DNA of 64,000 bases, taken from Dipteris shenzhenensis (Eukaryota). Where the stretch lies: assembly GCA_047967505.1 (NCBI GenBank), contig CM106538.1. The stretch is one strand, 5' to 3'. The notes beneath the pieces are model-generated. The model had not been told where the DNA came from. It ran no database searches and worked only from the letters and a program-made list of their open reading frames with translations. Shown in pieces: positions 41,400 through 64,000 of the stretch (within the stretch, counting starts at the first letter, position 1; every line of letters starts with the position of its first letter). The position numbers and the translations under genes are program-made.

Positions 41400-44300
41400 T
41401 CTATCCTTTGTAAAGAGTTATAGAGCACTAGTTGTCATAACACAAAATTCAATGAAATAAAAGGTGTAATATGCCATACCCTTCTCAAGCTCATTTCTTA
41501 GATGTCATGTGAATCAAATGGAGCATGGCAATCCGGGCAATTAGGGATGCATGGGTTGATCCATTAGTAGCAAAACCAAAGAGCCTAAATTTATAGAGTT
41601 CCTTGACTTTAAGGCTAGTCCATCCACATAAATAGAAAAGCCACCCCAATATCGGGCTACTTGGCCATTATGGTGATATTTTAGCAAACAAGCGCTCCTA
41701 AAAATTCTATCGTGGCATGATAATTGATGCAATTGGTGAGATACTATATACTAATCCACTTAAACATGTTGTGATCCCACAAGAAAGACTAGGTACACAT
41801 CCCTTGCTCATTTGGCCTATGAGATAACCTAGGGGGCAACTTGATTCACAAAAGGGTAGTTGTTTATCCAGATGTTTAGACCATGGGAGCCTTAATGTAC
41901 CTTGCTAGATGCTATCACCAATATCATGTCTCCAAATTGGAATTAGTTGTTGTGATAATAAGCCAAAATGTTGTATCTTTAACAAGAAACTAAGAAAAAC
42001 GAATTTGTAGTGAACATTCCCTCAAGCAATACTCCCTTGCGCTCTATGAGATATCTAGAGATTATTGCTCATGACTTAGGGGTGTATGTTTTAATAATCC
42101 ACTTATAATACAAGTTTTCACATTTCATCTTGACAGATTCAAGTTTGAGTCCTCCCTAATCATTAGGCATTGTTAGCCCCAAATCCCAAGAGAACAAAAG
42201 ACACTATGCTTTCGAAAGAAAGTCTCGAGCCAATCTATCCACAGAGGTGAAGCAATTCTGGAAGAAAGGGAAAATGCTAGAAACATTTACACTATCATAG
42301 AGGACAAATTATGCTTTAATACACTAACTCTACCCACCAAAGATAGCATTTTTTCTTTTTCGTTTATGAAACTTAGTCTCTATCTCCTGCATACATCATT
42401 ACATTCATTGCTTCATAGTAATACCAATCCCTAGTGGGAAACCAAGGAATTTGTAGATTGTTTCCATTGGGATCTGGTGGAAGCCATACGTTAAAATTGA
42501 CTTAGAAATGCTGTCCCACCCCAAATGAAGAATTGTAGTTTTATTTTTGTTAATGTGGACATCTAAAAGTGCACTCAAAGTGAGGAAAACTCTAAAAATT
42601 CATATGAACTCATGCACATTGTCAAGATTTGCAAAGTCTAATAAACTAGAGTTATCATCCACAAAACATTGAGATGCAAATTGTGAATCATGAGGTAGTT
42701 TTGGATGTCATAATGAGGACACTGACAAAGGATAATCTATTTGTCAAAGAAGTGGCCATGTGACCAATGCAAAACTTAGAAGTGGTGCAAGTGAGCAACC
42801 TTGGCCCAAACTGATCACCACAATAAGAATTGATTGTAGAGAAATAGTTCTTGATGGAAATGATAGCAGATTAATTAGTGAAAATATTAGCTATCATCAT
42901 ACAAAATCCATCAACAAACCCTAACTTGGTTGAAAGGTGTACAGGTGTGGATTGCAGAGGAACTCACAAAAAATCAAATGAAGAATAAAAGCTCAAAAAT
43001 AGCAAAGGTGAAGTTGGCGAGAAATGAAGGCAAATGGGCTGTCTACATAGACAGCAAGGTATTGGTTAAGGATTTTAAAGATAAAATGCCAGACCCTCAT
43101 GTATGATATCATTCGTTTTCTTCCTTTTTCTTGTATACTGGTTGAACCTATTAGGCAACATAGTTCATGCCACATGTCCATACTGGGTACATGGGTTCCC
43201 AAGCCCTAGTCCATAGCCATGCAAAGGGCCTCTCTCTCTCCTCCCAAGAGGGATGTGTGAGAGAGGGGAAATGAGGCCTTTATATTAAGGCCCCTAAGAT
43301 AGAGAATTTATGTATAGGATTACTCCCATGTCCATTATTCCATGCATTAATTGTGCGGAGTGATGGTCACCACCTTCAACACCCCTTGTGGACAAACCTT
43401 GAGTAAACGAAATCGATGATCTTGATCGAAACAAACCAAGGTGACATGGTATAGGAGCCGATAAGCCAAAGTTTCTACAAAGTCCACGTCAAACACAAAG
43501 ATTGCCTGCCTCAAATTCCATGGGTAGCAGCATTTCTACCAAAGCCCAAGGGGGCTGACACATGCATGTACTTAGGAATAGTTGCCATAATAAAGTTGCA
43601 CTGAATGTGTGCTACTAGAGACTGTGACACCTCTACACCACAAAAAATACATTGCCACGAATAAGTCTGTAGACCACCAAACACCAGACCATAGTAGAAG
43701 CCAAGGACAACTACCAAATGTAAGCCAGGAGATAGTCACCACCAACACAGTTGCCATCGAAATAGAATGGCTCTAATACCATGTTTGGCACATATCGGAC
43801 AACATGTCCACATTGGGTATGGGGGTCCCTAGACCTACCACCCCTAGCCCTACCACCTAGCCATGCAAAGAGCCTCTCTCTCCTCCTAAAAAGTCCCAGG
43901 AGGGATGTGAGATTCAGGGGAAAATTGAGCCTTTCTATCTAAAGCCCCCAAGAAAGCACCTTTATATATGGGATTACTCCCGTTTTCATTGTGCCATGTG
44001 TTAAGTACATGGTGCCCTGCTCATAAAATCATGCTCAAGCGAGGGGTGAAAGCCACCACCTCCAACACATCCAAGTCTAGTTGGAACTTGACATGGTTAT
44101 TTCATGTCTTTTAAGACATTATGCAATTCCCCCCTCCCCCATAAGAACATATTCAATATTGCCTCATGTATATTATGGCCTTGTATTCACGAGACCATAT
44201 GATGTGAGTGAGGAGAGCATTCAAGAATAAATTTGATGTGGTTTGCCATTGTTTTTTCCAATATTTTATATGGGTCATTGAGCATCGTCAATGGTTACCA

Positions 44301-45000
44301 AGCCCCTGAAAGCAAATGGTTTAGTGATTTGTGAATGAGTTCAATAACACCCTGATTCATTGAATAAGGTAAGAGACCATGCATAGCATAATGATTAAAG
44401 AGCACAATTAAATCCCACTTAGATACACCCTAGAAATACTAGTAGAAGTCATTAGGAAATCCATCTAGCCTAGGAGCCTTTTTTATGGATATTGAATAAA
44501 TAACAAAGAATAATCCATTCTCAAAGAATGGGCATTGCAATTGCAAGGCTTCATCTACAAGAAAGATAGTCAATATAGGTTCTAGAAATTGCTCTAGTCT
44601 AATATCATAGTCAACATCCTGAGGGGGTCATGTCCGATAACCAAAGAAAAATGCTCGAGCATAACATCAACAGTGGCATCATCTCTCATTACTTTTGACC
44701 CTCTCCGTCTTGATTCATTCTCTTTTTCTTGATATGATTTAAAAAAATTTGCAAAGGTCGATCACCACTATCGAGCCATATTAGTCATGATTGGATCCAA
44801 GCACCAAAGGCCCTTAGCACATGTGAGGAAATAGGATGGGAATGGCGCTAACATTTTGAGAGAACTAGGGATGGGTTGAGTGGGAGAGGATCCCAAGTTC
44901 TTGAGGACATGGTCCAAGATGGGAGAAAAAATGGCTATTCCCATCATAAACCTAGCCTAGGCCACTTTGTCTAGGATGAGAGTAATCATGAGAAATAGAT
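41400..45000 (-). mobile_element. Decayed LINE (L1-type) ORF2, interrupted at ~42945-44070
   Basis: The minus strand reads QGCSLAPLL (~42780-42805), SQCFVDD (~42655-42680) and YKFLGFPLG (~42430-42460). RT N-terminal remnants lie at 44080-44780. Confidence 0.7.
43149..44067 (-). mobile_element. TRIM-like non-autonomous LTR retroelement
   Basis: Diverged direct repeats at 43149-43381 and 43782-44067, both ending CACCACCT(T/C)CAACA. PBS TGGTATTAGAGCC (43769-43781, minus), short PPT at 43382-43388 and a ~390-bp non-coding core. Confidence 0.8.
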
Positions 45001-45069
45001 TCCCATCCTTAGAAACCCATGTTGATAGGGAACAAAATGGCTTCATCAAGGGAGATACATTTTTAAAAA

Positions 45070-46980
45070 TGCCCTCAAATGTGTCTACACTTTTGGAACA
45101 TGCTTGTGGTGTGGTGCAGAGAAGTGTTGGACTTTGGGTTTGATCTTGGTAGATCTCTTAGATTGATTGTAATGGGATTTCATTTGTGTAGTCTTGGATT
45201 GTTTGGGATTACGAGGGGAATTCATCTATATAGTAAGTATGCTTTTTGTAATGTTGCAATTGTCATGTGTTTGAACGAGGGAGTGGCGGGGAGATTTGAT
45301 CTTTGATGAGATTAGTAAAGCAAGGCTACCCATTAGCACCTCTATTGTTTGATTTGGGAATGGTTCCTAAGTGAATTTGATCCGTATAATCAAGAGGGGT
45401 GTAGAAGAGGGGAAAATCCAAGGGGTGACCTTACCATTTAGTACCCAATTATGTGTGTCCACACTCCAAAGGTGCTTGCAAATGACATAATTGCCATGTT
45501 TGTTGATGAGCTTAATAACATCTATAATGTGCAAGGTTTGCTCCTCTCCTATTGTGAAGCATGGGGTTCAGTTTGTAGCAAGTGAAGAACTTTTGTGATT
45601 AGGAAATATTCAAGAAGGATGCCTAGTTGGGTTGGAAAACTGCCCAAGGATTTAATATTTACAAAATCACTAGGACTTGAAGCATTAATATTTACAAAAT
45701 CACGTTAATGAGAGTAAACGTATGAGATTTAGGAAGTCAATTGCACGAAGCCAGTAAGATAATAGAATAGTATGTATATAGCAAGCTGCATGTTAAGAGG
45801 GTTAGAAGGGGTGAGATGGTTTGGTATTTGGAAGGCTCCCTCAGGGTGGGGAGTGTCATGCTAAGAAAACACTAAGTGGTTCAAGGATAAGCTTAAATCA
45901 ATGCTTCAAGGATGAAACACAACGTACTTGGGGTGGAATGCAAGAATGTTGATAATCAACCATCTACTCCTAGAAGCTTAGGGCTTGTAATTATGGGCTC
46001 CTAAATGCTTCATAGTTGACCAAGTGGCTCCTAAGCTGTTTGCCTGCTAGGCCCATGGGTAGTTATACAATATTGAAGCTAGAAGAAGCAATAAGTAGAT
46101 ATAAGGAGGGTCATGGACTAGTGTAATAGGATCTATTCCTAGTTCCCATTGAAAGTGGTTGGTTTAGACCTAGTTGTAGGCTTGATAGATGCCTAGAAGT
46201 TCTCTAGGTTCGTCTTGCATTGGAAACAAAGTGCTAGCTTTTCTAGGGTTTCCATCTTGGGTGAAAACCTATGGTGGATTCAAGTGGTGACTTAGGGTGG
46301 TGGGAAATCCATGGCTTATCTAGACTTGCCTGATTCTCAAAATTTTAGGCTAATCATTTTAATGCCTTAGGCACAATTGTGGGATCATCACCAAGAACAT
46401 TGGAAAGCAATATAGGATGTGTCGTTGGTGGTGCAAATTAATGCTCATGAGGAGGAATTGGTGTATGAGGAGCTACAACTTATTCCAGTAGATAGCCAAT
46501 TATGTAATCTCAACAAAATGGCATGTCAACCAATGGTCCTTGGGATCTAGGGTCCTAAGAAAAGATAGGGCTAAGTTTTCTTAAATGAAAATTTATAGTT
46601 TCCTTGAATTCCAAGTGGAATCTACTTAGAGGTAGGAAATGGTGGGAATCCAAGTTTATGAGAATTTGGAAGCAATGCTACATAGGGAAAGCCAAATAGA
46701 AGAAGTGGAAAGTTTTACTATGCAACTACTAGTCCAAGGAAAGATAGCTAAGTTTTTTATGTGTATTTGTATGTCCTGTATGTCAAAATATGAGTGAGGA
46801 TGTTCAACCCTTGTTCTATGGCTATTCAATAACATGGGTCATGGTATAGAAGTGAGTGCAGGAGTTGATAAAGAAATCAAGCTTGATGATGTCCTTTGCA
46901 TTGTAAGATTTTATCAAGGATGTGGTGCGATTCACCTCTGCTATTGTAGGTTTAAGGTAATTCATTGGTTCCAATAGTTT
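45070..46980 (+). mobile_element. Second decayed LINE ORF2 (RT to zf-RVT), opposite orientation
   Basis: QG.PLAPLLF-like sequence at ~45320-45350 and CPVCQNMSEDVQPLF at ~46770-46820. Confidence 0.65.
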
Positions 46981-48269
46981 ATTGTCCATCTAGTAGTTTC
47001 ACAATCACCTCAGGGGGCCCACTAAACAATATGTAAGATAGCACATGCAATCAATGGAAGGGGTATTAGTTTCTTATGGAGCTACATAAATATACATACA
47101 TAAAGGGGGTTTTAATTCCAAAAGCAAAAATTTCCATATGTAAGGGATACTTTTATAGTCTCAAAATTTATAACGAGGGTGTATATTGGTTATAAAAAAT
47201 TGTAGGATCACATGTGCTATATATATTTTTTACATAATAAACCATTCAGGACAATGAATTAGTTTCTGAGGGTCACCCCATTTATGATCAAAGCTCATAT
47301 ATAATTTTGAGTGTATTGTGTTCTTTATTTAGTATATGACTATGGTTGTCAAGTCCTTTGACAAGTGGATTAGCCTACTTCTCTATGAGGTAGGGTACTC
47401 AATACCTTGTTGGCCAGCATGACCCCAAGCATTTGGCCCAATTTTGTATTATGTGTCTTTTCCTTTGCGACTAACCCACTCTTAATAATATAAGCTGATA
47501 ATTTTTTTCAAAAAAGAAAAAGCTAAAGGCATTGATATTAAAGATGTATCTAGCCATTAGGCATAGTTTTTAAATTAATTAACAAAGAAATAATCATAGA
47601 TTGTCATTTTATTTTACATCCCTCCAAAAGATTATTACTTTGTCCAATTACTTTTACATGTAGTCTTGGTCTTAGATTAAAAAATTTTAAAGTATAGATT
47701 GAAGCATGCAAATGGGGATGAAAGACTTAGCAAACATAAACTGATCGCTGTGAAACCTGTTCTCAATCCTATCTGACTAAATTACTGTGTTGAACTTATA
47801 CATTTGTGAGAACCTTGTAATCATGTGTGATGCTTTTTTATGTTCCTTATGTTTTTTAGAAATAGTATTATGACTCTACCTTAAGCTTAAGAGAGGTACA
47901 ATTCTCAAAAACATTATCTAGATCAAGTTGTGAACCTTTTGCCAAAACATCAAAAGGACACTTATATGTCCCATTAAGCTACCAAACTAGTGTTAAGGTT
48001 GAACATATTGCAAGAGGCTACAAGAGTAGTAAAGGAAAAAAGAAACATATATTAACAGAACCATATCATGTGTTCATTTCTTCTTAGAAAATAGCTACAT
48101 ATCAAAATGGTGAGTAATTTTGTGATGCAGATTACAAAAAATCAATGAGATAGAAGGGCCTAGCATGCATGCATGCCTCTTTGAGTGTTGTTATACAATG
48201 CAAGTGTGGAAAGCGGTAGGAAAAAGCTTGAAGGGCTCACAGATATTCATAAATATAGATTGGAAGTTA

Positions 48270-50105
48270 GCTTTACTAGTGTTGGCATATGTAGTGCAAG
48301 CCGACCTTGACATCCATCAAATGGATGTCAAGACTACTTTCCTCCATGGAGAAATCTCTGAAGAGGTCCAACCTCTTGGATAAGAAGATTCCCTTCATCC
48401 TCATCAAGTCTGTCGATTGCATAAATCCCTCTATGGACTTAAACAAGCCTCTCATGCTTAGTTTGAGAAAATAAAGTTCTTTCTTCAACGAATGGGTTTC
48501 AATCCCCCAAGTACCGATTCAAGTATTCTTCAACATATCAAGGATTAGTTGCAATCACAATTTGATATGGTGGACTTAGGAGAGTTGGGATACTGATTAG
48601 GAATGGAAGTTTATAGAAACCGATCAATCAACAAGTATTCTTCTGTAAGAAAATAGTACGCAGCGGAAGATAACAACAAAACGCAAGTACACGATGGAAA
48701 GCTGGAGAGAATACAAAAAATTCTGATATACCAAACTGCTGATACAACTGATGGTTGGCTGTCCACCCGTGCGCTCTACAGACAGAGCTTCGATGGTGAT
48801 CTAGACAGATGCTGGACGGAGGACTATGAGCGTGAAGAACTGGTGATCTGATGATAGGGGGTGGCCACTTATATAGTGTAAGTGGTTGACGGTCGGCCCT
48901 GTAATAGGCAGTCGGCCTAATAGACAGTCGGCCTGGAAGACCAACCGACCCTTCAGAAAACATGCCGTCGGGCAGATGAAGGATCGCGCATAGGTCATAC
49001 CGTCGGGCCTGGGGCTACCGGCAGCCCCCGGACCCTGCCGCTGGGGGCTTTGCCCCCAGACCCCCACCGGGGGCCTGCGCCCCCCGGACCCCCTGCTATC
49101 GGGGGGGCTATCGCCCCCCCGAACCCCCCCTTTGTGCAGACGGGTATCTACTCTTGGCTCCTAAGCCGTCTCATAACCATCTGGTCTACTCTAAGACCCC
49201 TTCCAGTGTCTAAACTGGGGATCCCTCCCAATATCTGATACCCATCATGGCTTCTCCTCATATGGGGGCCTTACAACATTGGGTACACAGAATATTGGTG
49301 GGTTACATGAGAGGTGGACATTTGAGCTAACTCTAACATCTTCAACATGTCAAGGATTAGTTGCAATCACAATTTGATATGGTGGACTTAGGAGAGTTGG
49401 GATACTGATTAGGAATGGAAGTTTATAGAAACCGAGCTACCGTCCTTATTCACTTACATCAACAAAAGTATGTTCATGATCTCCTTGGCCGCTTTTGACT
49501 ACTACAAGATTGTAACGCAGTGGCTATTCCAATGGAACCTAATGTTGTCTCCATTTTGAATGGTATCAAGACTCATCTAGAAGTGACTTCTCTTCCTTAT
49601 CATAGATTGGTTGGTAGCCCTCTACACCATAGTATGTTGGAAACACACATTGCATTCTCTGTGATTATAATGTCTCAACATAGTTTGAAGCCTACACCAC
49701 AGCATTGGTAGATTCTCAAGCACATCCTCCGATATCTCCAAGGTACTCCCACTCACATTCTAACATTTTAGTGACAATTTGATCATGATCTTGAGCTTGA
49801 AGCATTCTCAGATGCCAATTGGGGATCTAATCAGCCCATTGGGCAATCCGTCAATGGATGTTGTTTTCTAATCAATGGCACTGTCATCATCAATTGGTTT
49901 AGTAAACCATAGTGCATTGTTGCTCTCTCATCTACTGAGGCTAAGTACATGGCCCCTTCTCTAGCACATCTTGTGAAGTGTGGCTTTGTCGACTGCTCTT
50001 TGACCTAGGGATTCTATCTCCATCCATGCCTACTAATCTTTGGTGTGATAATCAAAGTGCCATTGCACTAACCAAAAATCACATGCTTCACCCTCAAACA
50101 AAACA
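48270..50105 (+). mobile_element. Decayed Ty1/copia RT-RNaseH fragment
   Basis: DIHQMDVKTTFLHGEISEEV, LYGLKQA, FDMVDLGEL, FSDANWG, VALSSTEA, WCDNQSAIAL. Confidence 0.93.
48644..49275. mobile_element. Solo-LTR-like insertion (632 bp) with a GC-rich hairpin island
   Basis: Termini TGTAAG..CTTACA. CpG-rich relative to the flanks. GGGGGC..GCCCCC stems at ~49005-49130. Confidence 0.7.
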
Positions 50106-50109
50106 CTCT

Positions 50110-51058
50110 TGGTACAATGCACTTGTTGCTTGCTCCTAGGTGAGATCCTTGTTTGTCATTAAGGAACTTTGAAAATTGTGCCAGGTGCTGGGCAAGGATT
50201 GAAACAACTTCAGCTTTGGTTGCTCCACTAGTGTCTTGTAAGCTTCACTTGCACATGCAAGTTGATTGAATAGTTCTTTCATGGATCTGACATGTGCCTT
50301 CAGATCCTTGCCATTTGAATATTAAAGGTTTTCTAGCTTATGGAAAATATGTAGTATCTTCATTTCAGAACGCTTCTCATACTTTTGTATAAGCTAATCC
50401 TAGAGCCCTTTATTGGAATTGCATGGGGCTTCGAGCACTATTTCCCTCTTCAGACTAAGTCCTACAGCTGCCAGAGCTTTATCTTTTTGGACCTGCCAAG
50501 CCTTTCCTTCAGCATCCATCTAAGGCTTCTTCTTAGACCCATCCACCATGGCATAAAAGCTTCCACCCTTCAACTGTAAGGTCATCATTCTTTTCCATGT
50601 AGCAGAACCAGTGCCATCAAACATAAGGACAAGGCACAATGTGGAACTTGATGACGTCGAAGCCAACATGACATGCTCTTCCTAGCTTAACCGCTCTGAT
50701 ACCAATAATGAAAACAAAACTAAGATGCAAATAAGCAAACATACAACAAACAATAATAGGAAATCAAGAGCACATTTCATTCAGTATGCACAAGCCTTCT
50801 TATACATCATCCTCATCGATCATGATCCATCTTCATCCGCAATCCTCACGGAGGCTCATGCACCCTCTTCATGATCTTAAGCATGCTCTCTACCCATTTA
50901 GCCAACTGGAGGTGGTGCATCAAATGTGAGGTGGTGCACCGGATGATTTCTGTGCATGTGCGTGTGCATTACCACATCGGCTTGTGCATGCAAGGTGCCA
51001 CGTAGACTTATTTTCATGGGCATGTTTGCACATGAGTTCCAACAAACTTAAACATAAC
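50110..51058 (-). mobile_element. Truncated Ty1/copia: LTR (~50709-51058), PBS (50693-50704), gag (~50110-50670)
   Basis: PBS TGGTATCAGAGC on the minus strand; gag reads FDGTGSATWKRMMTLQLKG..LFQSLPSTWHNFQSSL. Confidence 0.85.
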
Positions 51059-51090
51059 AAGTGTAGAGGTTGATATCCATAAACACGGCA

Positions 51091-51922
51091 ATGGCTCGCA
51101 AGCAAGCTCTGATTCTAGTCCTTGTGGTGTTGGGGGCGCTCATCAACTATCATGCAGTCGACAAGGTGGAAGCTTAACAAGGAAGATAAGGTAGTTCCCA
51201 TGGATGCTAACACACAAGCTGAGGGAGGCTACGGCAGTTGCAAGAGGTTATTCCTACACGTGTTTGTTTTGTCGTATGCATCAGGATGCCATTGCCAAAA
51301 AGGCAACCGAAAATTGTTTTGCATGTATGTGCAAAAGTTCTTGAAACATGGTGATCAAACCCTAGATGCCACCATTGTGAGGCTGTGGCACTGCTCCATA
51401 CATGACCTTGTGCATGTGTGTGCACATTAATCTACATATGTGTAGAGAGGTGCACACCTCCACCTCTGATGCCAAAAATCTAGCACCGACTAGTAAGGCC
51501 CCACTGTGAGTGCATAAGACAAAAGGAAGTGACCTAGAAATAACGTTGGGCCACTATGGGGGCTTGGAGGTGGTTATGGAGGTCATGGAGCTAGATCTCG
51601 TACCCAAGACAAGGAAGGGTATGGGAGCTATGGTGGATGTGGAGGCTATGGTGGCTATGGTAGACACAGAGGTGTTGGAGCTACCTCTCACACTCAAGAA
51701 GAGGAAGGCTATGGTCATTATGGTGGACATGGTAGTGGAGGCTATAGTGGTCGTAGTGGGTATGGTGGACATGGAGTGGGTATGGGCATGGAGGACATGG
51801 AGCTACATGTGAAATTGAAGCTGAGAAGGCTATGGAGGCTACTAGTGGGCTTGGGGATGGCTATGGTGGTGGACATGGGGGGGGGCTATGGTGGGCACGG
51901 TGGGGCAAGTGTTGAGAGGTAA
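51091..51922 (+). pseudogene. Secreted glycine-rich protein (GGYGGHG repeats) pseudogene
   Basis: Signal peptide MARKQALILVLVVLGALINY; ..EGGYG at ~51220; repeated GGCTATGGTGG/GGACATGG units at 51550-51920. Contains frameshifts and stops. Confidence 0.75.
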
Positions 51923-54164
51923 TGCTGCAGTTATCTCATTGTGCAACTCTGTCTTATTCCACTAACTAACAGTTTGTGTTGCACATGTGGAGCTCTCCTT
52001 CAAGAAGATGATGTAGTTGTTAATAGATCAAGGGCAACTTGTTCCCTTTATCATTAGATAAAAGCTTCTCTTCTTGAAAGACTCTAATATGTGCATGCAC
52101 AGGCACAAGGTTTAATAAAGTAGTTGAGTACCTACATATATAAGACATAGTGAGAGCACCCGAATGTACCACATGCATGGTAAATCTCTAGAATTCAAAA
52201 AATTCATATAGCATTTCCCTCTAGTTCATGCATTTTCTTTTTCTAAAGCACGACTATTTATGCTACCTTATGTAGGTCAACTTGGCCCACTATTAGAAAG
52301 TATTCCTATCACTCCCCAAACATAGCAATTGTGATTACCCCGAGACTTGCATCTTATACTTGACAATTTCATTATATTAGGGATCCTCTCAAGGTACCAA
52401 ATTCATTCGTTCCGTCATGAAAAATATACTAACACATAACATCATTGACATGTTCTATAAAAAACAAGGTCTTGCACCAAGAAACCTTGCTCAAAGTTCT
52501 AAATCAACTTCACAACAAATCAAGTTTTAGCATTCCATCCGATGTAGAATTACCATTCTTATCCACACTCCTCCCACATAGTGTATAGAAGTCAATATAG
52601 GATTTCATGTTGTATTCTTCACATCATGTACTACGCTTAAAGCCAAATAGATATAAGTAGTCACTAATAAGAAAGTGATATTTAATACTCTTTGGGGTCT
52701 TGAAAGGTTCTAGAATCAATCCTTGGACAATCATGAACCCTAGAATAGACTTTTGAAGATGTATCCCTTAGGGTTGACGCAACAGTTTCCAAAAAGCGAT
52801 AGGTGAAATAATATACCTGATCTTACTTGAAAGATGGTGATCTCTCTTTGTACTTTTTCAGGAAGAAGTCATGTAGGTTGGACAAAATCAAGATTCATGT
52901 AGAGGCCTGCTTGCACTAAGATCCAAAGACATGTAGTCACTAGGCAATATCCTTGTCCCATCCTTGTACATTCTTGTCACCATGCTAGCCAATTTGGCTT
53001 TTGGTAAGGTGCTGAAAGATAGGCAACTCACAATATAGCGGTATAATTTTGATCAAATCTGGATGAGAAGATGTAACCACTACCTCATAAGGCCGCATCC
53101 ACAAAGGCAAACTAGCCTTTATAAAAATGTATTCACAGCACCTTAGTGTTAGAAATAATGGAATGGTCTACAGTTGATATTAAAGACTCCATGTGTTTAC
53201 ACTCTACACTTGCTATTGCAATACCCTATGCAAGTGGACTCACCATATAAATGAGACACAAGTTGCATTGTAAGGTTCTCTTGTGTGCAATAATCACTAG
53301 TCTTAACTATCATTTGCATACAAAATCACCTTGAACATCTTCAAAATTCAGGCATTTAGGCTTAGCCTCATGGCTTAGCAATAGGAATTGGAAAAGTGAG
53401 TTCTACTACAAGATGATAAGGGTCTTGCAATGAAGCCCAATAGAATTGTGATCAAGCAGCTTATCGAGCACAAATCCTAGTCTTGAGAAGAGCCAAATTT
53501 GAAAACCCTCCTTATCCTCTCCATATGCTCCCAAAGTGCTCCCACAATTCACCACCTAGTGCCTTTGTCTCCTTCGGGATAGAACCTCCACTGCATTAAT
53601 GATAGAGTGCACAATAGAGGTTCACAGACTAAGTAGACCCACGAAATGAAAACTTGAAAAACTACCAATTTTTTGGAAAACTCCATAAATGAAAACTTGA
53701 AAAACTTTCAAAAGGCACTAAGACCGATATACACAAAGAAAGTCAATGGAAAGAAAAACATGGGTGATCTCCCTCAATAATTCAGATTGTACCAACAATT
53801 CTCAATTGTATGATTACCATTATCATTGCAAATTTGACCTTGGACAATTGCATAGATTTGCCTTCTCTTCAATGTGTACTACATTTGGGACCTTAAAATC
53901 TTGTGGATTCAATTTCTTTTATATCCTTGTGGGTATTTCTTCAGCACAATATATTGGTAATGCACCTTGTAGTGACAGAAATATGGAATGGGGAGACAAT
54001 AGAAATACCTCTAAAATAGATTCATAAACACGTTAAGATGAGTAGGTATATGTATTCCATAGCCAAAGAAGATGCCTAATAGAAAATCAAATATCTGCCC
54101 TGTCACATTTTAGAGGATTGTGAGTATTACTATTTGGTGTTTTACTTTATTTTGATCTAACGAT

Positions 54165-54530
54165 GAATCGTGAAGACGAAAATGGTTGTCATTTTAAAAC
54201 TTATGTCAATTTGGGATTTGGAATCTGCTTCTTGATAAAGTTGACAAATATAAAATTCTATTGATGATGAAACAAACTTTTTATCCAAAAAAGGAATTTT
54301 TGAAATATGAATGGATGCAAATTTCAGTCCACTAAAAGGAAAAAACTTTTGTCATGTAAGACTTCCATTGATGAATCAAAATTTACCTTTTTAAGATGAA
54401 ATTGTATTGTATTCATGGAAAGTTATTTTTTTTGAATGAGAATTTTTGTGTGTTCACGTTTATCAACAAAGTGGATTCCAAAATCTAAAATTTCATCAAG
54501 TTTTGAAAACGACAACTGTTGTCATATTCA
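54165..54530. mobile_element. MITE-like element with ~65-bp imperfect inverted repeats
   Basis: GTTGTCATTTTAAAACTT..TTTGGAATC..TTGATAAA (54185-54240) pairs with TTTATCAA..GATTCCAAA..AAGTTTTGAAAACGACAAC (54458-54516). Confidence 0.6.
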
Positions 54531-55681
54531 TGCTTTTAGATCTAGCCATTGTAAACTTAATACTATATTTTTGCAAAGGCTAGATTTCTAAATTGAGCCA
54601 TTGGATCAAAGTAAAATGATAGATTATAGTAATCATGATTAATTAAAATTTGACCATTTGAATCATTGGGTTTCTATCTAGATCTAAAGGCATGTTTGCT
54701 TTGAATAAACCTCTTTTATGGTCATGGACTCCATATCCCTACCCATCTTAATGTCAAAATATATAACTTAAACACTTTGATCAGCTTTGTACAAAAAGAA
54801 AAGTTATTTTTTAAGACAAAACAGTAGCCCCATGTAAAAGTGTTTCATCAAATTATATTGGATCTCAAAGTAACATCAATTATATTAACTATCAGTTTGT
54901 GGATAGCATGCTATATATAACAACTATTCTAGAAATGTATATTGGTACAAAACTTATCAATGAGGACAGTGTTATTACTTATGTGGAAGTCAATTGATAA
55001 AAAATTATTTCAACTAGTGCGCCTAATGGAAAGTATGATCCAAAGATCATTATACAAGATGACAAAGGAAAATGGCCGAAGAGGAATACTATCTAGTGGC
55101 TCAAACACCATATTAGAGAATTTGGGAAAATCCTAATAATTTGGGAACTTTTGAGGGGTTGTAATTATGTAACATTCAATGTTTTTCATTGATTTTTCCC
55201 ATAGATTTGGCAGTCCATCCAAATCTTGCAAATGTGCATGGTTTGCATCAACATAAATAAAATGTCAAATGTTGAGGTTTCGACCAATGCATGGTATTTT
55301 TTGAGGAGTTTCAATTACAATGCATTGAGTGCACTCCATTGACTTTCTCCTTGGATTTGGCTGTGTATATGAAACTCACAATTTGGAGTGTGCCTGTTCT
55401 GTATTAACCGAGAAAAAAACATCATATGTTTGAGTTTAATGAAGCATTTTTTGCCTCTTGTCGAATCAAAAACACCATTTTAGTTTAGTTGCAGAAAAAG
55501 TAAGAATGCAACACTAGTCCATGATATTTTATCGAGTGTGCAGAACTTGCAACCACAAAGCAATGGTCTGCAAAAAAAAAGATAAAGAAAAAAGATCAAT
55601 GTCATACCTTCCAAATATTTATCAATATTCAATTAAATTATCATTGTGCAAGGAAAAAAAAGTCATGCTTTTCAAGTACCT

Positions 55682-58600
55682 TCACTCCATTGTGGAGTCA
55701 GCATCAGAGTCAGAATCTATTCTATGAGACAAATTGGATAAAGCTCGCTTGTGTGCAATGGTTGGTATCTTCACCTTGATGGGGAGGTTGCTACTCTTCG
55801 AGGAAACCTTCTTTGAGAGGTTACATTTTGGAACCCATGACCATACAATAGCATCAATAGATTCCCAATGTGGAGGATCACCTTTATTGCACATCCAAAT
55901 CTTGTTCCAACAATCTCCATACACCTCCTCAATTTGTGCATTGTGTCTTTTGCATATAGGTGCCCAATATTGTATGAAAACCTTCTTGAATTTTTTAGAT
56001 TTATTATCCTTCTGTACATCAGTTTGAGCAATGCCTAGCCAAATTGGGTAAATTTTTTCTGTTGGTTAGACCAAAAGAAAGTGTCCTTTTTGTACATCAA
56101 CCATTGGATTAAATGATTGTTTTGGCTTTTTCCTTTGAGGTCCACAGTAGTGATCATTCAACTCTTCAATTCCTTGAAACTCATCATTTTCATTATCAAC
56201 TACTTGCACACAATCAATATGTTGCGTCTTTGGCCAAAATCTCTCATACATGCCCTCTACACTATTGTTTGGTTTATCAAGCTCATCAATCATGTTCTTC
56301 TAGTACTTCACTACTGGCTTGTAAAACTTTGTGAAAGATGCTTCTGGACCTTGCAAGTGCACCCATTTTTCCCAAAAGCATACATACTCCTTGATACCAA
56401 CTATCACATCTAAGTGATCCTTCACATACTCGAACATGATTACACAAGGTGGCTCTCCACTTGGTAGCATTGGATGAACATTCGGATGTCTCTTCCACAA
56501 CTCAATGCCACCTTCACTTGGTTGGCAATCTAATGATCGTGGATGCACTTTATATTGCATGATAGGAGCTTCATTTCACATAAAGAACCGAAATTGGAGA
56601 GGCTTTGAGTGTCCCACTAAAGAATCCTGTCCATTGCATAGGCATCCATCAACATAGCTCTTGAAATCAGGGACTTCCGTTACCAAAAATGGCATTGGAG
56701 AAGACTCCTCACATTGTCTAAAAGTATCCATGAGATGTGCAAATGTTAATGTTTGGCTAGTTCTTAACCTCTCTGAAAACCTACTAAACATTGCATCAAT
56801 ATCCTCATGTGTATGCCCAACCATCAAGAATCCCAATTGAATTGACTTGAAAATCCCTCGAGCAACAAGTAATGATAGGTATGCAAACAAGTACCTATTC
56901 TTGTTTTCAGAACCACAATTATCCAACTGCAACAATAGGTGTTCGGGTAGTTTCTTATAAGGATTTTATTGATGGGAACTTCCAAGTCCAAGGTCTTTGA
57001 ATGTTCCACCCACTGCTCCAAGATGAAGTTGTTGCTTGCCATTAGAAACATAGTGAGAATCCAATGCTTCTCTTGAGGTTAGCGTGTTTAGTAGAGCGTT
57101 GTTAGACCTTGGCATCCCATCATGTACCAAATCTCCAAGTGCATGGTTATCAAATCTTTCAAGATTTCTCAAACACAAAGCCAATGAACCAATTGTGAAG
57201 TTAGGATCTGACGGCCACAAGGATAAAGAAAAGTGACCATAACATCCTTGACCATGTCCATGTGTTATCATTCCAGTCAAAGACACTAGGAGCTGAAAGA
57301 ATTTGTCTATGTCCTTTGAACGATTGCATAATCTAGGGATGGCTGTCTTCTTTTGGTCCATCTTATCATGGATAATGCACAAGTATGTCTGAGGATACAT
57401 TTCAAAAAATCTACGCCAAGTGTAGTACACATTTCTACAACTTTTTTGTTGTAACATGTGCTTTCTTCTATCTTCCATCAACTTATTACGTTCATTTTGG
57501 CATTTTGGCCTTGATTGCACTACATAAACCACACTTAGAGAATTCACTTGTTTTTGACAAAGTTAAATGCTTGAATTCAGAGTGCCATATGTGGATGAAC
57601 GTGGAAGTTGACATCTCCTTACAACCCAAACTATGCTTTAATTGCATGTTAACCTCATAGAGAATATCAACTTGCTTGTATACATCTGGTATCACCAACT
57701 GTGTTTCCCTTGATCCATCTTGAAGTGTTCTACTTTTGTGTGGAATACACTCAGAATTGTTATCCACAAAATCTTGGATTATGGCTCTACCTAAATCTGT
57801 GTGGTCCCAACCTCTCCGCACGATTCCTTTATTACCGTGCATGCACCTTCATATACCAATTTCAAATTGCTCCCTGTATCAATAAAATGTTGTTTTTGGA
57901 ATACCATGCATTTCATACCATGCTCTACAACAAACTTGAATACCATTCAATGAAAAGACATATTTGAACTGCCTATTGTCATCTTTTCGACAAGCAACCC
58001 CAAGAGTGTCATATACATAATTGGTGCGAGCCTCCAAACTTTGGCCCCAATACTCTATGCGTAATTTGCATATCATTTGACGATCGGCAAATCGATAACA
58101 ATTTTGTTTACAACAATCAATCATAGATACTTTTGTGACTGCATCCCTTGTGAGTCTAGATGATGCCAATTGCATGCCATGTTTTTTAGCTTTCCTTTTT
58201 ATCATGCAGTAACGCCTCTTTTTTGTGGATTTTTCCATTGGATCCTCATATTCCATGTGCTTTTTCCCAGAACCACTTGGAGAATTCATGGTGTCATTGA
58301 TTCTTAATGAAGTTCCATCTAAAAAGGTTATTTGTGCAATGGGCCATTTTATTAAGTGGATGGTATCGATGCCTGATACATCACTATGATACTTTTCAAT
58401 TCCCACACCTAGATTACCTTCACCAAGCATCTCAAAATTTATAGGTTCAAATTGGTAGACATACAAAACAACACCCTCTGCAATGCTCTTGGTTTTCTGC
58501 TCATCCCATATTAAAACTTTATTGTCCTTCCATGATTCTCGAATGGAAAGCTCATCATATTCACATAGAGGTTCAACATCAATGGTATCCGATGTTATAT

Positions 58601-58889
58601 CATTCATTGGTATAATAGCTCCATTGACATTGTCCACACAACTCATTGATTAGGCTTTCCAACAAACAACACTACCCAAAGCCTCATAGACTAAGAATGC
58701 ATCCATTGTAGGAAATGGAAGAAGTGCACTTTCATCCATACAAATATCGATCGCCACCGATACATTATTTTCTCCCAAGGGCACACCTTGGCACATGTCA
58801 TCATGTGATGTAGAGAATATTGTCCCAATGGCAACAATCTTTCCACTGACAAGCAAGTTGACTTTAACCCCCACTTTCAATGTGGCACC
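55682..58889 (-). pseudogene. Large DUF7869-type (Sola-like) RNase H-fold transposase candidate, ~1070 codons, with two N-terminal Tnp1/En-Spm-like beta domains
   Basis: Eight ORF-track pieces join into one reading frame with a single frameshift near 57500. Motifs: IVAIGTI..QGVPLGENNVSVAID..LLPFP..GSVVCW; CCKQNC; NGIQVCCRAW..HGI; HGNKG; FSKCGLC; IHDKMDQKK; LQLDNCGSENKN; FLMVGHTHEDIDAMFS. A splice acceptor lies at ~58890. Confidence 0.8.
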
Positions 58890-58939
58890 TACATATTACA
58901 TAGCATTTATTATAGTTCAATATTGATATCTGATGGTGT

Positions 58940-59682
58940 GACTGGCTACATGGCCAAATCTTCACAGACCATGGTGCTTTGAAAGGGAGATAGCAAGATT
59001 TGTCCACACTACCAAATCTTCCGAGACACTGGTGCTTTCAAGAAGCCATCAAGATTTATCCACACATCCAAATCTACTTAGACCTTGGTGCTTTGAAAGA
59101 AGCCAAATCTCCACATACCCTGGTGCTTTGAAAGAAGCCCACAAGATTTGGCCACATGGTCAAATCTCCCCAGACCCTGGTGCTTTGAAAGGAGCCAACA
59201 AGATTTGGCCACATGGCCAAATCTCCTAAGACAATAGTGCTTTGAAAGAAGCAATAAGATTTGGCTACATGGCCAAATTTGCTCAGACCTTGGTGCTTTC
59301 AAAGAAGCTAGCAAGATTTGGATGCACGGCCAAATCAAGACCTTGGTGACTTCTTTCAAAGCACTGAGAAGATTTGGTTGTGGTGTTCTTTCAAACTTGG
59401 GGAGATTTGGTCGTGTGGCCAAATCTTGTAGGCTTCTTTCAAAGCACTAGGGTATGGGGAGTTTTGGCCGTGTAACCTCCTCTTGCATGCTTCTTTCAAA
59501 TCACTAGGTTTTGAGAGATTTGGCCGTGTGGCCAAATCTTTCAAAGCATTAGGGTTTGGGAAGATTTTGCCATGATGCCAAATGTTGCTAGCTTCTTTCA
59601 AATCACTAGGAAGATTTGGCCACATGGCCAAATCCTCTTTCAAATCACTAGGAAGATTTGGCCACATGGACAAATCTTCAAA
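58940..59682. repeat. Left palindrome array (~45-57-bp units), orientation flips at ~59345
   Basis: Core AGATTTGGCC-N4-GGCCAAATCT. The linker is TGCTTTGAAAGAAGC up to ~59340, then its reverse complement. Confidence 0.95.
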
Positions 59683-60374
59683 CGTTAAATTTAAAAATTG
59701 AAAATCCGAATTTTAAAATTTAAAATTTAAAGTTCAAAATTCAAAATTCAAAATTTAAAATAAAAAATTCAAATTTGAAATTTCAAAATTTAAATTTCAA
59801 GTTTCAAGTTTCAAATTTTGAAATTCAAATCTAGAGATCCTACTTTTAAAAAATTCGTACATGCTTTTCATGATTCACGCTATTACACTTTAAAATCATA
59901 TTATTACTTTAAAAGCAAACCAGAAAATCTAAAACTATTAAAAAACCAAAACTTTAAAAGGCAAAGCTAAACAAACCTTTTAAACCAAGCATAAAAAGTA
60001 AACCTATGAGAAGGAATTGAATTCATCTTCATGGGGGATCAAGTGCTAGGCTTACCTTGTTCTCTCCCTTCCTAGATCTCAAATGTGTAACTAGGGTGGT
60101 TTGAGAGCCTTAGGACAATGTCTTAGATGGGGTAGTTCTTGGAAAACACTCCTCCACCCTTGGTTAGCTAATTGCAAGCAAAAAAGTTTAAAACTATGTC
60201 AAAATAAGAGGTCTCGGGAGGCTCCCCATCCTAGTTTTGTCCTAACAGTGTGCACTTAACTATGCAGGTTTTAAACTTCCATTACCGATTCAACTCTCCA
60301 TAAATTCCACATGCAATAGTTGGATTAGAAAGAGGTCCTTTTTTTTTTTTTTTTGGCTCTACATTTCCCTCGGT

Positions 60375-60612
60375 TCTCCTTCCAATCCTCTGGATGAAAT
60401 CCTTTCTCCTGTTACACAAAATCCCCTCAATTCTGCTTCCACTCCTCTGCTGGATGAAATCCCCTCTTGACACTCCTCTCTCCTGGCCAATCCCCTCTTA
60501 TATGAAGTGCCCCCTCCATCCTTCTGCCGCTCCTCTCGATGAAATCCCCCTCAGTTCTCCTTCCACTCCTCTGGACGAAATCCCCTCTCCTCTTGCACGA
60601 AATCCCCAATTT
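60375..60612 (+). repeat. Degenerate minisatellite (GATGAAATCCCC core) in the central spacer
   Basis: About 6 copies of GA(T/C)GAAATCCCC-like motifs with CTCC-rich linkers. Confidence 0.8.
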
Positions 60613-61051
60613 CTGGCGCTCTTCTCTTTGTGCTTCTTCCCTTTGGCTCGTCTTTTGTTTGCCAGCAAGAAAGACAACTCCTATAATTGCTATAGCTACT
60701 CTCTATACATCTCCTACGATTGCTTGAAATCCAAAGAGCACAAGCTCACGAACAACAATGGCTACTCAATGATCCAAGTAAGAAAACGAAAGAAATCAAA
60801 AGTGTACCTAATTCATGCATGTTCTCCATTTTTTCCATTTCGGAACACCACGATTTGAAAGAAAGAGTCTTGTAAAAGTAGGAATCTCGAAGTGTGATTT
60901 GAAAGTAGGGTCTTTAGTATATGATTTGACTTTCAGATCTTGAAATTTGAATGTTGAATTTTGTATCTAAGATTTTGAATTTTGAATCTAAGATTTTGAA
61001 TTTTTCAGATTTGAAATTTGAATCTTAAGATTTGAATTTTAAATTTTAAAT

Positions 61052-62285
61052 GGGGAGATTTGGCCATGTGGCCAAATCTTCTGGCTTTTTTCAAAACATA
61101 CAAGATTTGGTCATAGGGCCAAATCTCCCTAGACCTTGTTGATTTGAAAGAAGCTATAAAGATTTGGCATCACAACTAAATCTTCCTAAACCTTGCTGCT
61201 TTGAAAAGATTTGGCCACACAACCAAATCTTCCTTGACACTCGTGATTAGAAAGAAGATAGCAAGATTTGGTCGCATGGCCAAATCTCTCTAGACCCTCA
61301 TGATTAGAAAGAAGCTAGCAAGATTTGGCTACACAGCCAAATCTCCTTAGACCCAGGTGATTTAAAAGAAGCTAGAAAGATTTGGCATCACAACCAAATC
61401 TCCCCAAATCCTGCTGCTTTAAAAATTTGGCCACACGGCCAAATCTCCCTAGACCCTTTGATTAGAAAGAAGCTAGCAAGATTTGGCCACACAGCCAAAT
61501 CTCCCTAGTGCGACCAAATCTCCCTAGACCCTTGTGATTAGAAAGAAGCTAGCAAGATTTGGCCGCACATCCAAATCTCCCTAAACCCTCGTGACTTATA
61601 AAAAGCTAGAAAGATTTCACATCGTAGCCAAATCTCCCCAAACCTTAGTGCTTTGAAAAGATTTGGCTACACGGCCAAATCTCCCCAAACCCTGGTGCTT
61701 TGAAAAGATTTGGCTGCATGGCCAAATCTCCCCAAACCCTGGTGCTTTGAAAAGTTTTGGCTGCATGGCCAAATCTCCCCAAACCCTAGTGCTTTGAAAA
61801 GATTTAGCCGCACGGCCAAATCTCCATAGACCCTTGTGATTAGAAAGAAGCTAGCAAGATTTGACTACATGCAAATCTCCCCAAACCCTGGTGCTTTGAA
61901 AAGATTTGGCCACATGGCCAAATCTCCAGAGACCCTCGTGATTAGAAAGAAGCTAGCAAGATTTGGCCGCACAGCCAAATCTCCCTAAACCCAAGTGATT
62001 TAAAAGAAGCTAGAAAGATTTGACTGATTTGAAAGAAGCTAGCAAGATTTGGTTGCACAGCCAAATCTCTCCAGACCCTAGTGCTTTGAAAGAAGCCCAC
62101 AAGATCTGGGCATAAGGCCAAATCTCCCCAAACTTTGGTGCTTTGAAAGAAGCCCATATGATTTGGCCACACATCCAAACCTCCCCTTCTAGTGCTTTAA
62201 AAGAAGCCCATAAGATTTGGCCACACGGCCAAATCTCCCTAGTGCAACCAAATCTCCCTAGAATCTAGTGCTTTCTCAAATCTAC
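61052..62285. repeat. Right palindrome array (~46- and ~57-bp units, over 20 copies)
   Basis: AAGATTTGGCCACA(C/T)GGCCAAATCTCCCCAAACCCTGGTGCTTTGAAA(GAAGCTAGC) is repeated. Confidence 0.97.
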
Positions 62286-62321
62286 TACTATGTCTAGAGT
62301 CAATTCTAGATTCTATTTTAG

Positions 62322-64000
62322 ACACAAATGTGAAGAAGGTTGAGAAAGTTGTAAGTGGATTTGGAGAAAAAAGCATACCTTGGTACTTTGACATATATAG
62401 TATTGAGGGAGCATAGTTAACACGAGTTCACTTATTTGTTTTGTTACCTAATAAAAGTGCATACACTTGTGTTGGATCGGCACATTAAATCACTGAAGAT
62501 GTGGTTGGAAAAGAGGGAGATATTGGATTGTTGACCATTATAAATCAAAAATTTCTCTTGGATCCCAGTGATTATGAAGCATCTCGTATGAAGTCTGATG
62601 TAGATGACAACATGCACTCAAGAGGCTTGATAAGTGTTGAATCAATTGATGGAAATAAAATTGACACAGTGACAACAATGATTGAATCATATCGCAAAGT
62701 TTTAGCAACATTAAAAAAGTGTAAGAGTGGGGAAGGAACAGAGAAAGGAAAGTCGACTATGGTTCAAGCACCAGGTGGTAGCAGAGAAGGGGCAAAGAAA
62801 GGAAAGCTAACTGTAGTTGATGTACCACAAGAAGGAACACCTCCAGAGGGTATGCTAGCAGTTGTGGAAAGAAGCAGTGGTAGTGAATTGTAGCCAAGTG
62901 GAAAGGTCATAGGAAAAAAAGAGCAAAAGAAACCATCAAGCTTGGTGGAATATGAAAAATACTATCCATTCGGGTTGCATGCAAGATTTCCAATTCCGGT
63001 TGCAAGATGTGTATATAGAGGGTTGAACAAAGAGCATGTCGAGAAGCTTGCTACAGACTTTGGTTATAACTCTAGGCCTCCTACTACTGTAGCGGATTTA
63101 ATGCCTTTCAATCCTAAAACAAAGCAGCCCCTGGAAAGGGTAGATAAAAAGGATTTAACCAAGTGCCACTACTGGATACTATCTGGACAACATTCAGTAT
63201 ATGCTACTAAAATATTCACAGCTAATGGTGATAACAGCACGGTCCAAAGAAAGAACTACTACCACACCCACCAGGCGAGGATTGTAGTGAATTGTCCCGC
63301 ACGCTTTTGTGTGGAGATATCAAAGATGGCAAACCTGGAGTCTCAAAATATCTTGAGACAATCTCCATACATTGATATACTTAAGCAGGTGAGGGGACAA
63401 TGGATTCTCTTTAACAAACCCAAGAAAGCACAATAAGGGCTTGCAAAAGGACATCCAGATCGTGAGAATTGGGATGTAAGTACAGATTTTAATTATGAAT
63501 CATTTTTTACAAGTCTGTTTTCTTAATTATTGCATTCTAATGGATTTTTATCTTTTGTAGGCTTTCATTGACACTGGCAAGGTAACATTGGGCAATAGCT
63601 TTGCCACGAAGGATGTACATATGATAATCATAAGCGATGTCATTTATGATGGTTGGATCTCCATCCTTGAGGATTACATTGCAGGAAAATATTCACAAGA
63701 TGGAAAATGCTATAGGTAACCCATAGTCTCAATGTTTAGATGCTTGCATGGATTGAGTGATGACCAAATTAGTCAAATTCAAAATGACATTAAGGAAGGT
63801 AGAGTAGTCATAGCTAAAACAAAGACTGATGCCATGATTCTTGATATTGAAGGATGAGCTATGCAGATCAAGAGAGATGCTGCACTATAAGAAGAACTTT
63901 ATATGTTTATATCGGCAGAACAACCTTCCTTAATGTTAAAAAATTGGGATGAGTGCAGATTACATTTTAAAATTACTCTAGAATTGTATCATCAGATTTG
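62322..64000 (+). pseudogene. ParB/Sulfiredoxin-like domain protein, decayed; intron 63476-63560; runs off the window
   Basis: 62324-63474 is one frame with TAG/TAA stops. VYRGLNKEHVEKLATDF..HYWILSGQHSVYATK..ARIVV..ISKMAN matches the ParB/Srx N-terminal pattern (R....v..L, y.ii.GqH/R..A, ..N). Confidence 0.65.

Follow-up and report, generated by a model that had tools for sequence, protein, structure and literature searches.

Near the end of a 64,000-nucleotide stretch of the Dipteris shenzhenensis genome (assembly GCA_047967505.1, contig CM106538.1; hereafter the window, whose positions serve as coordinates throughout), two genes point away from each other across a block filled with copies of a 24-bp palindrome. 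Which protein reads these palindromes, and what would such a reading do? We found that the block and both genes lie in a decayed copy of a large cut-and-paste plant DNA transposon with two divergent genes, which runs from 55104 to beyond 64000. The gene on the minus strand is of the DUF7869 type and would encode the transposase. The gene on the plus strand encodes an accessory protein with a ParB/Srx-like domain, and this protein probably reads the palindrome arrays and influences the expression or chromatin of its own element. A sequence-only reading of the same DNA had already placed the DUF7869 gene and the ParB-like gene head to head around the array block, and the coordinates obtained by tblastn agree with this layout. 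The features of the element are as follows.

55104–55714: left end region of the repeat family, beyond the stop of the transposase gene
55715–58889, minus strand: DUF7869-type gene of a predicted DDE transposase, full length against relatives of 1058–1069 amino acids, dead
58950–59340, plus strand: array A, 56/57-bp units with one 24-bp palindrome each; starts about 60 bp from the transposase start
59340–59680, minus strand: array B, the units of array A inverted; forms inverted repeats of 71–113 nt with arrays A and C
59687–59830: AT-rich minisatellite of 7/21 bp, left arm of an inverted pair
59831–60939: palindrome-free spacer of about 1.1 kb
60940–61050: AT-rich minisatellite, right arm of the pair, inverted
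61056–62260, plus strand: array C, units of 47 and 57 bp with 21 palindromes in all; the accessory gene follows about 70 bp downstream
62333–64000, plus strand, running off the window: 5' part of the accessory gene (tblastn of the relatives P0001, P0007, P0009 and P0011)
62942–63436, plus strand: open reading frame (ORF) with the predicted ParB/Srx-fold domain and an SGQHS motif (AlphaFold2 and structure searches)

The palindrome arrays and the gene beside them

The palindrome was scored as AGATTTGGCC-N4-GGCCAAATCT, a 24-bp pattern of 10-N4-10 design. When up to two mismatches were allowed, 23 matches were obtained, all of them within 59144–62236, and none appeared in 100 shuffles. With up to four mismatches the number rose to 32 copies, spanning 58996–62236. 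More than 30 copies had been claimed from the sequence alone, a figure that holds at four mismatches and fails at two. The 10-bp half-site AGATTTGGCC, searched with at most one mismatch, gave 60 matches in the window, 54 of them inside 58952–62236 (expected number, 6.1). The intergenic block between the two gene starts measures about 3.3 kb, and its 32 palindromes are set in tandem units with periods of 57 and 47 bp. Within the 64 kb the repeat is confined to this block between both genes, bar one degenerate copy at 55203–55226. That copy carries three mismatches and is the sole match outside the arrays at five mismatches or fewer; when the 58.9 kb were shuffled, 2 of 20 shuffles also gave one match at this threshold.

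Conservation within the units is uneven. In ten 57-bp units, the mean identity to the consensus was 0.95 for the palindrome arms, 0.83 for the unit spacer and 0.70 for the six central positions. The three central dinucleotides read CG, CA, TG or TA in 29, 32 and 28 of the 32 copies, a pattern that fits a CGCGCG centre which would have decayed through deamination of methylated CpG. The observed-to-expected ratio of CpG was 0.26 for the window and 0.14–0.23 for the arrays.

The two unit lengths differ by 10 bp, about one helical turn, so either type of unit would leave neighbouring palindromes in the same rotational phase. This phasing of the 47- and 57-bp units may be a coincidence. The minisatellites that flank the spacer form an inverted pair (I5; 59677–59800 and 60926–61049) with 70% complementarity. 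Between them, the spacer contains a low-complexity ORF of 154 amino acids, for which Pfam returned no match. A scan of 54–64 kb against Rfam also gave no match.

The arrays also accompany the gene in distant relatives. A scan of metagenome contigs returned four loci (L001–L004) with relatives of the accessory gene at 38–39% identity. The contigs of L001 and L002 do not extend upstream of the gene. On the other two contigs, tandem repeats with four (L003) and five (L004) copies of CCCTATGGCC-N4-GGCCATAGGG lie directly upstream of the ParB-like gene; 100–170 bp separate their end from the start codon, and the rest of those contigs is free of them. The palindrome of the window is absent from the L003 and L004 contigs, and CCCTATGGCC-N4-GGCCATAGGG is absent from the window. 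Common to both are the 10-N4-10 design and the core TGGCC-N4-GGCCA; the five outer bases of each arm differ. Such differences would look like a protein-site pair that is diversifying into private specificities. The linkage of array and gene in L003 and L004, with differing arms, argues against an unrelated satellite. The arrays are found beside the ParB-like gene at both of the distant loci that reach upstream, in agreement with the sequence-only reading, for which they were part of the element and not an independent satellite.

The ParB-like gene copies at L001 (SSQHS) and L002 (SGKHS, with an in-frame stop) are partly damaged, so that the metagenome family, too, is a mix of intact and decaying copies.

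Two divergent genes and their repeated element

The part of the accessory gene that lies in the window comprises the N-terminal domain, the ParB/Srx-like domain, an intron at about 63470–63560 and the start of a middle region. Seven in-frame stops interrupt it, at 62414, 62486, 62891, 63434, 63717, 63855 and 63888. Both genes are pseudogenes in this copy, which the sequence-only reading had implied only in its call for a repaired protein.

The ORF at 62942–63436 was modelled with AlphaFold2 (residues 1–164, with 59 aligned relatives), and the model reached a pLDDT of 91.7 and a pTM of 0.79. When the model was searched against the PDB with Foldseek, PadC, Noc, ParB, sulfiredoxin, SbnI and KorB came out on top (best E 8.3e-4, probability 1.00, TM 0.3–0.46). 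VIA-align was run over 48,161 representative chains. Its top nine rows were all ParB/Srx proteins: PadC (Z 9.0), free serine kinase (8.8), KorB (8.3), Arabidopsis sulfiredoxin (7.4), SbnI (7.3), pNOB8 ParB (6.5), Atu1540 (6.0), human sulfiredoxin (5.3) and Spo0J (4.4); the first unrelated chain followed at Z 3.9. In a structure search of BFVD, phage ParB-like proteins led. The three lists are uniform, and on the strength of this predicted model we take the ParB/Srx fold of the ORF, proposed earlier from the sequence, as established. The ESM Atlas returned unnamed eukaryote clusters, then DUF3723 (31% of the members of one cluster), and ParB_N (35%) at rank 26 with a score of 0.92; these matches are used as leads only.

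In canonical ParB, Noc and KorB, an arginine-bearing nucleotide-binding motif (GxxR / GERRxR) sits at the turn from a strand to a helix. The corresponding turn in the model leads from strand 76–81 to helix 83–94 and reads [S/N/D]-G-Q-H-[S/T] in the family and S-G-Q-H-S in the window. Among the 59 members, G82 is conserved in 59, Q83 in 57, H84 in 59 and Ser/Thr85 in 58; at other positions R26 is found in 56, N131 in 59 and R151 in 59. The GQHS motif in place of the arginine motif, which the sequence-only reading had pointed out, is therefore a property of the family, as GQH[S/T]. Judging by the model, the family has a conserved pocket other than the canonical CTP-binding one. A CTP-clamp mechanism as in bacterial ParB is unlikely, given that the family as a whole has other residues in place of the motif arginine. 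The ParB/Srx core of the model is followed by two helices. Comparison of three paralogous ParB domains, taken from a single metagenome record set, gave dN/dS values of 0.08–0.14; the domain has therefore evolved under purifying selection.

The accessory family is small: 154 clusters were collected at E ≤0.001 among 1.84 billion representatives, and the only members with a named source, annotated as hypothetical proteins, come from the fern Adiantum nelumboides. Scans of viral contigs, with the family alignment and with the transposase relative P0016, gave no match. The long members (990–1440 amino acids) share one domain order, in which an N-terminal domain, the ParB/Srx domain and a conserved middle region precede a NIF/FCP-like HAD domain. 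Pfam NIF was detected in five of the eight scanned members of at least 990 amino acids (P0007, P0010, P0011, P0013 and P0115), and also in P0215, a C-terminal fragment that shares only 32% identity with P0115. The window ends upstream of this domain, which is known from the full-length relatives. Pfam found no methyltransferase or 2-oxoglutarate (2OG) domain in the family members scanned.

The minus-strand gene carries Pfam DUF7869 (PF25273; 1.8e-37 on the ORF 56576–56935). When the relatives P0016 and P0024 (1058–1069 amino acids) were used in tblastn, residues 3–1063 aligned from 58880 to 55715 in two segments. The gene is damaged by seven in-frame stops and a frameshift near 57503. On the relatives of 1058–1069 amino acids Pfam reports DUF7869 only, a PDB sequence search with P0016 gave nothing significant, and no usable match to the core was obtained from the ESM Atlas. 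The core was judged by structure, from a model of the relative P0021 (46 aligned sequences, pLDDT 81.0). Foldseek with this model was weak (best E 0.035). With VIA-align, the top 31 rows were all DDE transposases, retroviral integrases or other RNase-H-like nucleases; Mos1 scored Z 8.0 (rmsd 4.0, 179 residues aligned), Metnase 7.4 and several intasomes about 7, and IstA, TnsB, Sleeping Beauty, Tn5, Mu and Hermes were among the further rows. The acidic residues D88/D91, D255 and D295/D297 are 90–100% conserved in the family; in the model they lie at the end of strand 82–89, at the end of strand 249–255 and, with a near-invariant HTHxDxD, at the start of helix 294–309. The DUF7869 core is thus predicted to have the fold of DDE transposases and integrases, with acidic residues at the canonical places, and the earlier naming of this gene as a transposase is upheld by the model. 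The family consensus shows CCxxxC and CxxC as conserved motifs upstream of the core. Mosses, a liverwort, bivalves and a sea urchin are the sources of the named DUF7869 proteins. A literature search found no paper naming DUF7869; if the assignment is true, the family would gain a function as the catalytic core of a DDE transposase.

Other copies of the element were sought in Logan contigs matching 44001–64000, which came from two low-coverage DNA runs of one organism (X1 and X3), one metagenome and one RNA run. Contigs at about 95% identity cover 55104–58943, array A, 60721–61081 (part of the spacer) and 62686–64000, and the summed contig depth is near 0 in the flank at 49.3–54.0 kb. In two contigs, X1 record 1 and X3 record 9, the alignment begins precisely at 55104, and a further 1515 and 871 nt beyond that point are unlike the window. 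Further joints at this boundary run from 47996 to 55103 and from 54160 to 55104. Position 55104 was taken as the left end of the repeat family. The stretch therefore belongs to a repeated element, as the sequence-only reading had supposed when it proposed a large eukaryotic element with ends still to be found; the left end is now placed, and the right end lies beyond 64000. When the left end was compared with the window by self-BLAST, the terminus did not recur in inverted form. A CACTA element was considered and set aside, with no CACTA terminus and no Transposase_21/24 domain seen.

Across 58.0–64.0 kb the summed depth of the contigs keeps to the same order (7–31 in X1, 16–61 in X3). Over the arrays it is no higher than over the genes, which gives no sign of a genome-wide satellite. 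X3 record 13, from another copy, joins the 5' region of the transposase gene to array A. Within the block the other copies differ, with joints from 58943 to 61171 and from 59701 to 61031; the latter was found in X1 and in X3, with 40 other letters between its two sides. The spacer of about 1.1 kb may be an insertion in the window copy or a deletion in the others. The RNA run gave only 43 reads on 20 kb, 25 of them less than 90% alike, and was not used as evidence.

The outermost piece of the element, 55104–55146, is very highly repeated: the bin 54673–55339 has a summed depth of 2123 in X1 and 3767 in X3, where other parts of the element reach tens. From X17, RNA reads match this piece alone and have their loose ends at 55104 and 55146. 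Many short non-autonomous elements may share it as a terminal repeat. Two other repeats lie elsewhere in the window. At 2525–3532 on the minus strand, an ORF of 335 amino acids with a Copia-type reverse transcriptase domain (RVT_2, 2.6e-79) marks the remnant of a long terminal repeat retrotransposon. At 46669–49336 there is another high-copy repeat, with a depth of 59–368 in the two DNA runs and several internal joints, which is unrelated to the element.

Candidate readers of the palindromes

The reading that we prefer has the accessory protein as the reader. It would recognise the palindromes as a dimer, a binding that we infer, and would coat the arrays in the upstream region shared by the two genes. 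Coating would bring the C-terminal effector domain to the element's own DNA, where the effector would control the transcription of the element or its chromatin state, as self-regulation or anti-silencing. Such a role would parallel the one proposed for the ParB-like accessory proteins of algal giant transposons. The reading starts from observations given above, namely the arrays, the two folds, the repeat family, the linkage of gene and arrays with co-varying arms, and the purifying selection on the ParB domain.

Several points weigh against it. The scores for the ParB/Srx fold are middling (Foldseek E about 1e-3, and Z 7–9, the range that VIA-align calls common), and they were obtained with a predicted model, made from a pseudogene ORF that is without 7 residues found in the relatives. 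Pfam gave no relevant family for the plus-strand ORFs or for the 59 family members, and PDB chains compared with the family profile reached at best E 0.018, on a low-complexity stretch. At the position of the motif arginine, 58 of the 59 members have serine or threonine. Sequence-specific reading of DNA by bacterial ParB is not the task of its N-terminal ParB/Srx domain, and within the modelled residues 1–164 a helix-turn-helix or other DNA-binding domain was not identified. The proposed effector is degenerate: the canonical phosphatase motif is DxDxT, and at its place the Adiantum proteins have SLCGL and P0215 has DLNGL (alignment including P0007, P0010 and P0011), which suggests that the NIF/FCP-like domain may be catalytically dead, a pseudo-phosphatase. 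The window copy is itself dead. Only two outside loci are informative, neither long enough to show a transposase, and among the contigs listed, none from another copy spans from array C into the accessory gene. Finally, the Cys-rich N-terminal region of the transposase could be the palindrome reader.

This last point belongs to a different explanation, by which the palindromes are binding sites of the transposase, like the subterminal repeats of En/Spm, read by its Cys-rich N-terminus for transpososome assembly, and the ParB-like protein does something else. Plant DNA transposons usually carry multiple short binding sites for element-encoded proteins, and here the degenerate palindrome at 55203–55226 lies 100 bp inside the left boundary, array A begins close to the transposase start (about 60 bp), and the CCxxxC and CxxC motifs upstream of the core are conserved. 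However, 32 of the 33 palindromes are internal, 3.8–7.1 kb from the left end, and not subterminal. The arrays of L003 and L004 stand directly upstream of the ParB-like gene, and the published algal arrays are tied to that gene as well. We consider the transposase an unlikely reader.

It could also be that chance or nesting has made neighbours of two mobile units with no relation to each other, a DUF7869 transposon that ends in or near array A and a separate unit of arrays and ParB-like gene. The orientation of the units flips at about 59340, and arrays B and C form an inverted pair around the spacer, as the ends of a nested element would. The differing joints of other copies within the block (58943 to 61171 and 59701 to 61031) point the same way, and so does the reported movement of ParB-like genes between superfamilies in red algae (10.1101/2025.02.11.637652). 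Set against this are X3 record 13, the contig that connects array A with the 5' region of the transposase, the depth of the same order across 58.0–64.0 kb, and the absence within the block of any further terminal sequence resembling the one at 55104. The Sola1-1 element of Ectocarpus has the same opposite-strand layout (PMC12477816). Two separate units are, in our judgement, rather improbable.

Lastly, the arrays could be a neutral tandem-repeat expansion, a satellite seeded in the transposon that has no protein partner, and tandem repeats commonly expand inside plant transposons, the number and layout of units vary between copies, and the unit spacer is fairly conserved too (0.83), as from recent duplication alone; but we regard this as very improbable, since in 64 kb the repeat is confined to the block between the two genes, its depth is not above that of the genes, relatives at 38–39% identity have arrays of the same 10-N4-10 design with other arms in the same place, and the arms are better conserved than the spacer.

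With the accessory protein as the favoured reader, a wider conjecture can be formulated, which we offer only tentatively and hold to be doubtful as a whole. Transposons of the fern lineage would re-use the ParB-parS principle in chromatin: a ParB/Srx protein without the CTP-clamp arginine would sit on CpG-centred arrays of 24-bp palindromes between its gene and that of the transposase, a degenerate NIF/FCP domain would engage RNA polymerase II or the silencing machinery, and the arms would co-evolve with the protein, giving each subfamily its private recognition. In this way the element would steer or shield its own expression. A partition role of the bacterial type was set aside, given that the element is a chromosomal repeat of the nucleus whose accessory protein has lost the CTP motif.

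Several consequences would follow. The accessory proteins would define a ParB/Srx family invisible to Pfam, with GQH[S/T] as its signature. The two subfamilies, with the same TGGCC-N4-GGCCA core and other outer arms, make specificity swaps possible. The CpG-rich centre of the palindrome lets host CG methylation be tested as a block or a licence for binding.

Comparison with known systems

ParB, Noc and KorB are CTP-dependent clamps that load at palindromic parS, NBS or OB sites, and KorB is also a transcriptional repressor at palindromes. The element in the window resembles these bacterial systems in having a ParB/Srx-fold domain and multiple palindromic sites beside the gene. It differs from them in the change of the arginine motif to GQH[S/T] and in its context, a eukaryotic nuclear transposon. 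Its sites are 24-bp palindromes of 10-N4-10 design, in tandem units of 47 and 57 bp and in 32 copies.

Closer parallels come from algae, and a literature search on ParB-like accessory proteins of transposons found only the Ectocarpus report to be relevant. The elements are compared here by description. In the red alga Bostrychia moritziana, Petroll et al. (10.1101/2025.02.11.637652) describe PAG3, a protein of Plavaka elements that combines ParB-like and 2OG-oxygenase domains and has tandem inverted-repeat arrays beside its gene. PAG3 is proposed to bind and modify its own element, and most copies are degenerate (10.1101/2025.02.11.637652). The ParB assignment rests there on an HHpred match to 7BNR (E 0.29), and in red algae such accessory genes are reported to have moved between transposon superfamilies (10.1101/2025.02.11.637652). 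PAG3 and the window element are alike in an N-terminal ParB-like domain, a second, effector domain and arrays beside the gene. They differ in the effector (2OG-dependent oxygenase against NIF/FCP-like HAD), in the transposase (Plavaka/EnSpm, of EnSpm/CACTA, against DUF7869) and in the host, a red alga against a land plant.

The 21.5-kb element Sola1-1_Ec32 of Ectocarpus carries a gene of 1104 amino acids, ParB-like with a DNA methyltransferase, on the strand opposite to the transposase (Dinatale et al., PMC12477816); for green algae that report cites Iyer, Abhiman and Aravind 2011. This giant DNA transposon resembles the window element in having its accessory gene opposite to the transposase strand, but its effector is a DNA methyltransferase rather than NIF/FCP-like, and arrays are not mentioned in the accessible part of the report. 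The target-site duplication of Sola1 is given as 4-bp AWWT (PMC3845634). The taxon range of DUF7869 overlaps the range reported for Sola1 (Physcomitrella and bivalves), the only hint of this kind. A literature search found no work linking a NIF domain to a transposase, the supplements of the algal papers being outside its scope.

The VANC anti-silencing proteins of VANDAL transposons in eudicots, as cited in 10.1101/2025.02.11.637652, offer a functional parallel. They, too, are accessory proteins encoded by an element and thought to bind its own repeated motifs and to alter its epigenetic state. VANC is an unrelated protein family, and no ParB fold is reported for it in that material.

Thus ParB-like accessory proteins beside inverted-repeat arrays have already been described in algal giant transposons. 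The pairing of a ParB-like gene with arrays, put forward from the sequence alone, is less new than it had seemed there. If the accessory protein reads its own palindromes, the class of self-binding transposon accessory proteins would extend from algae to land plants, and would gain a third kind of effector, phosphatase-like, beside DNA methyltransferase and 2OG oxygenase. What is new here is the host lineage, a land plant, together with the effector domain, the GQH[S/T] motif and the transposase family.

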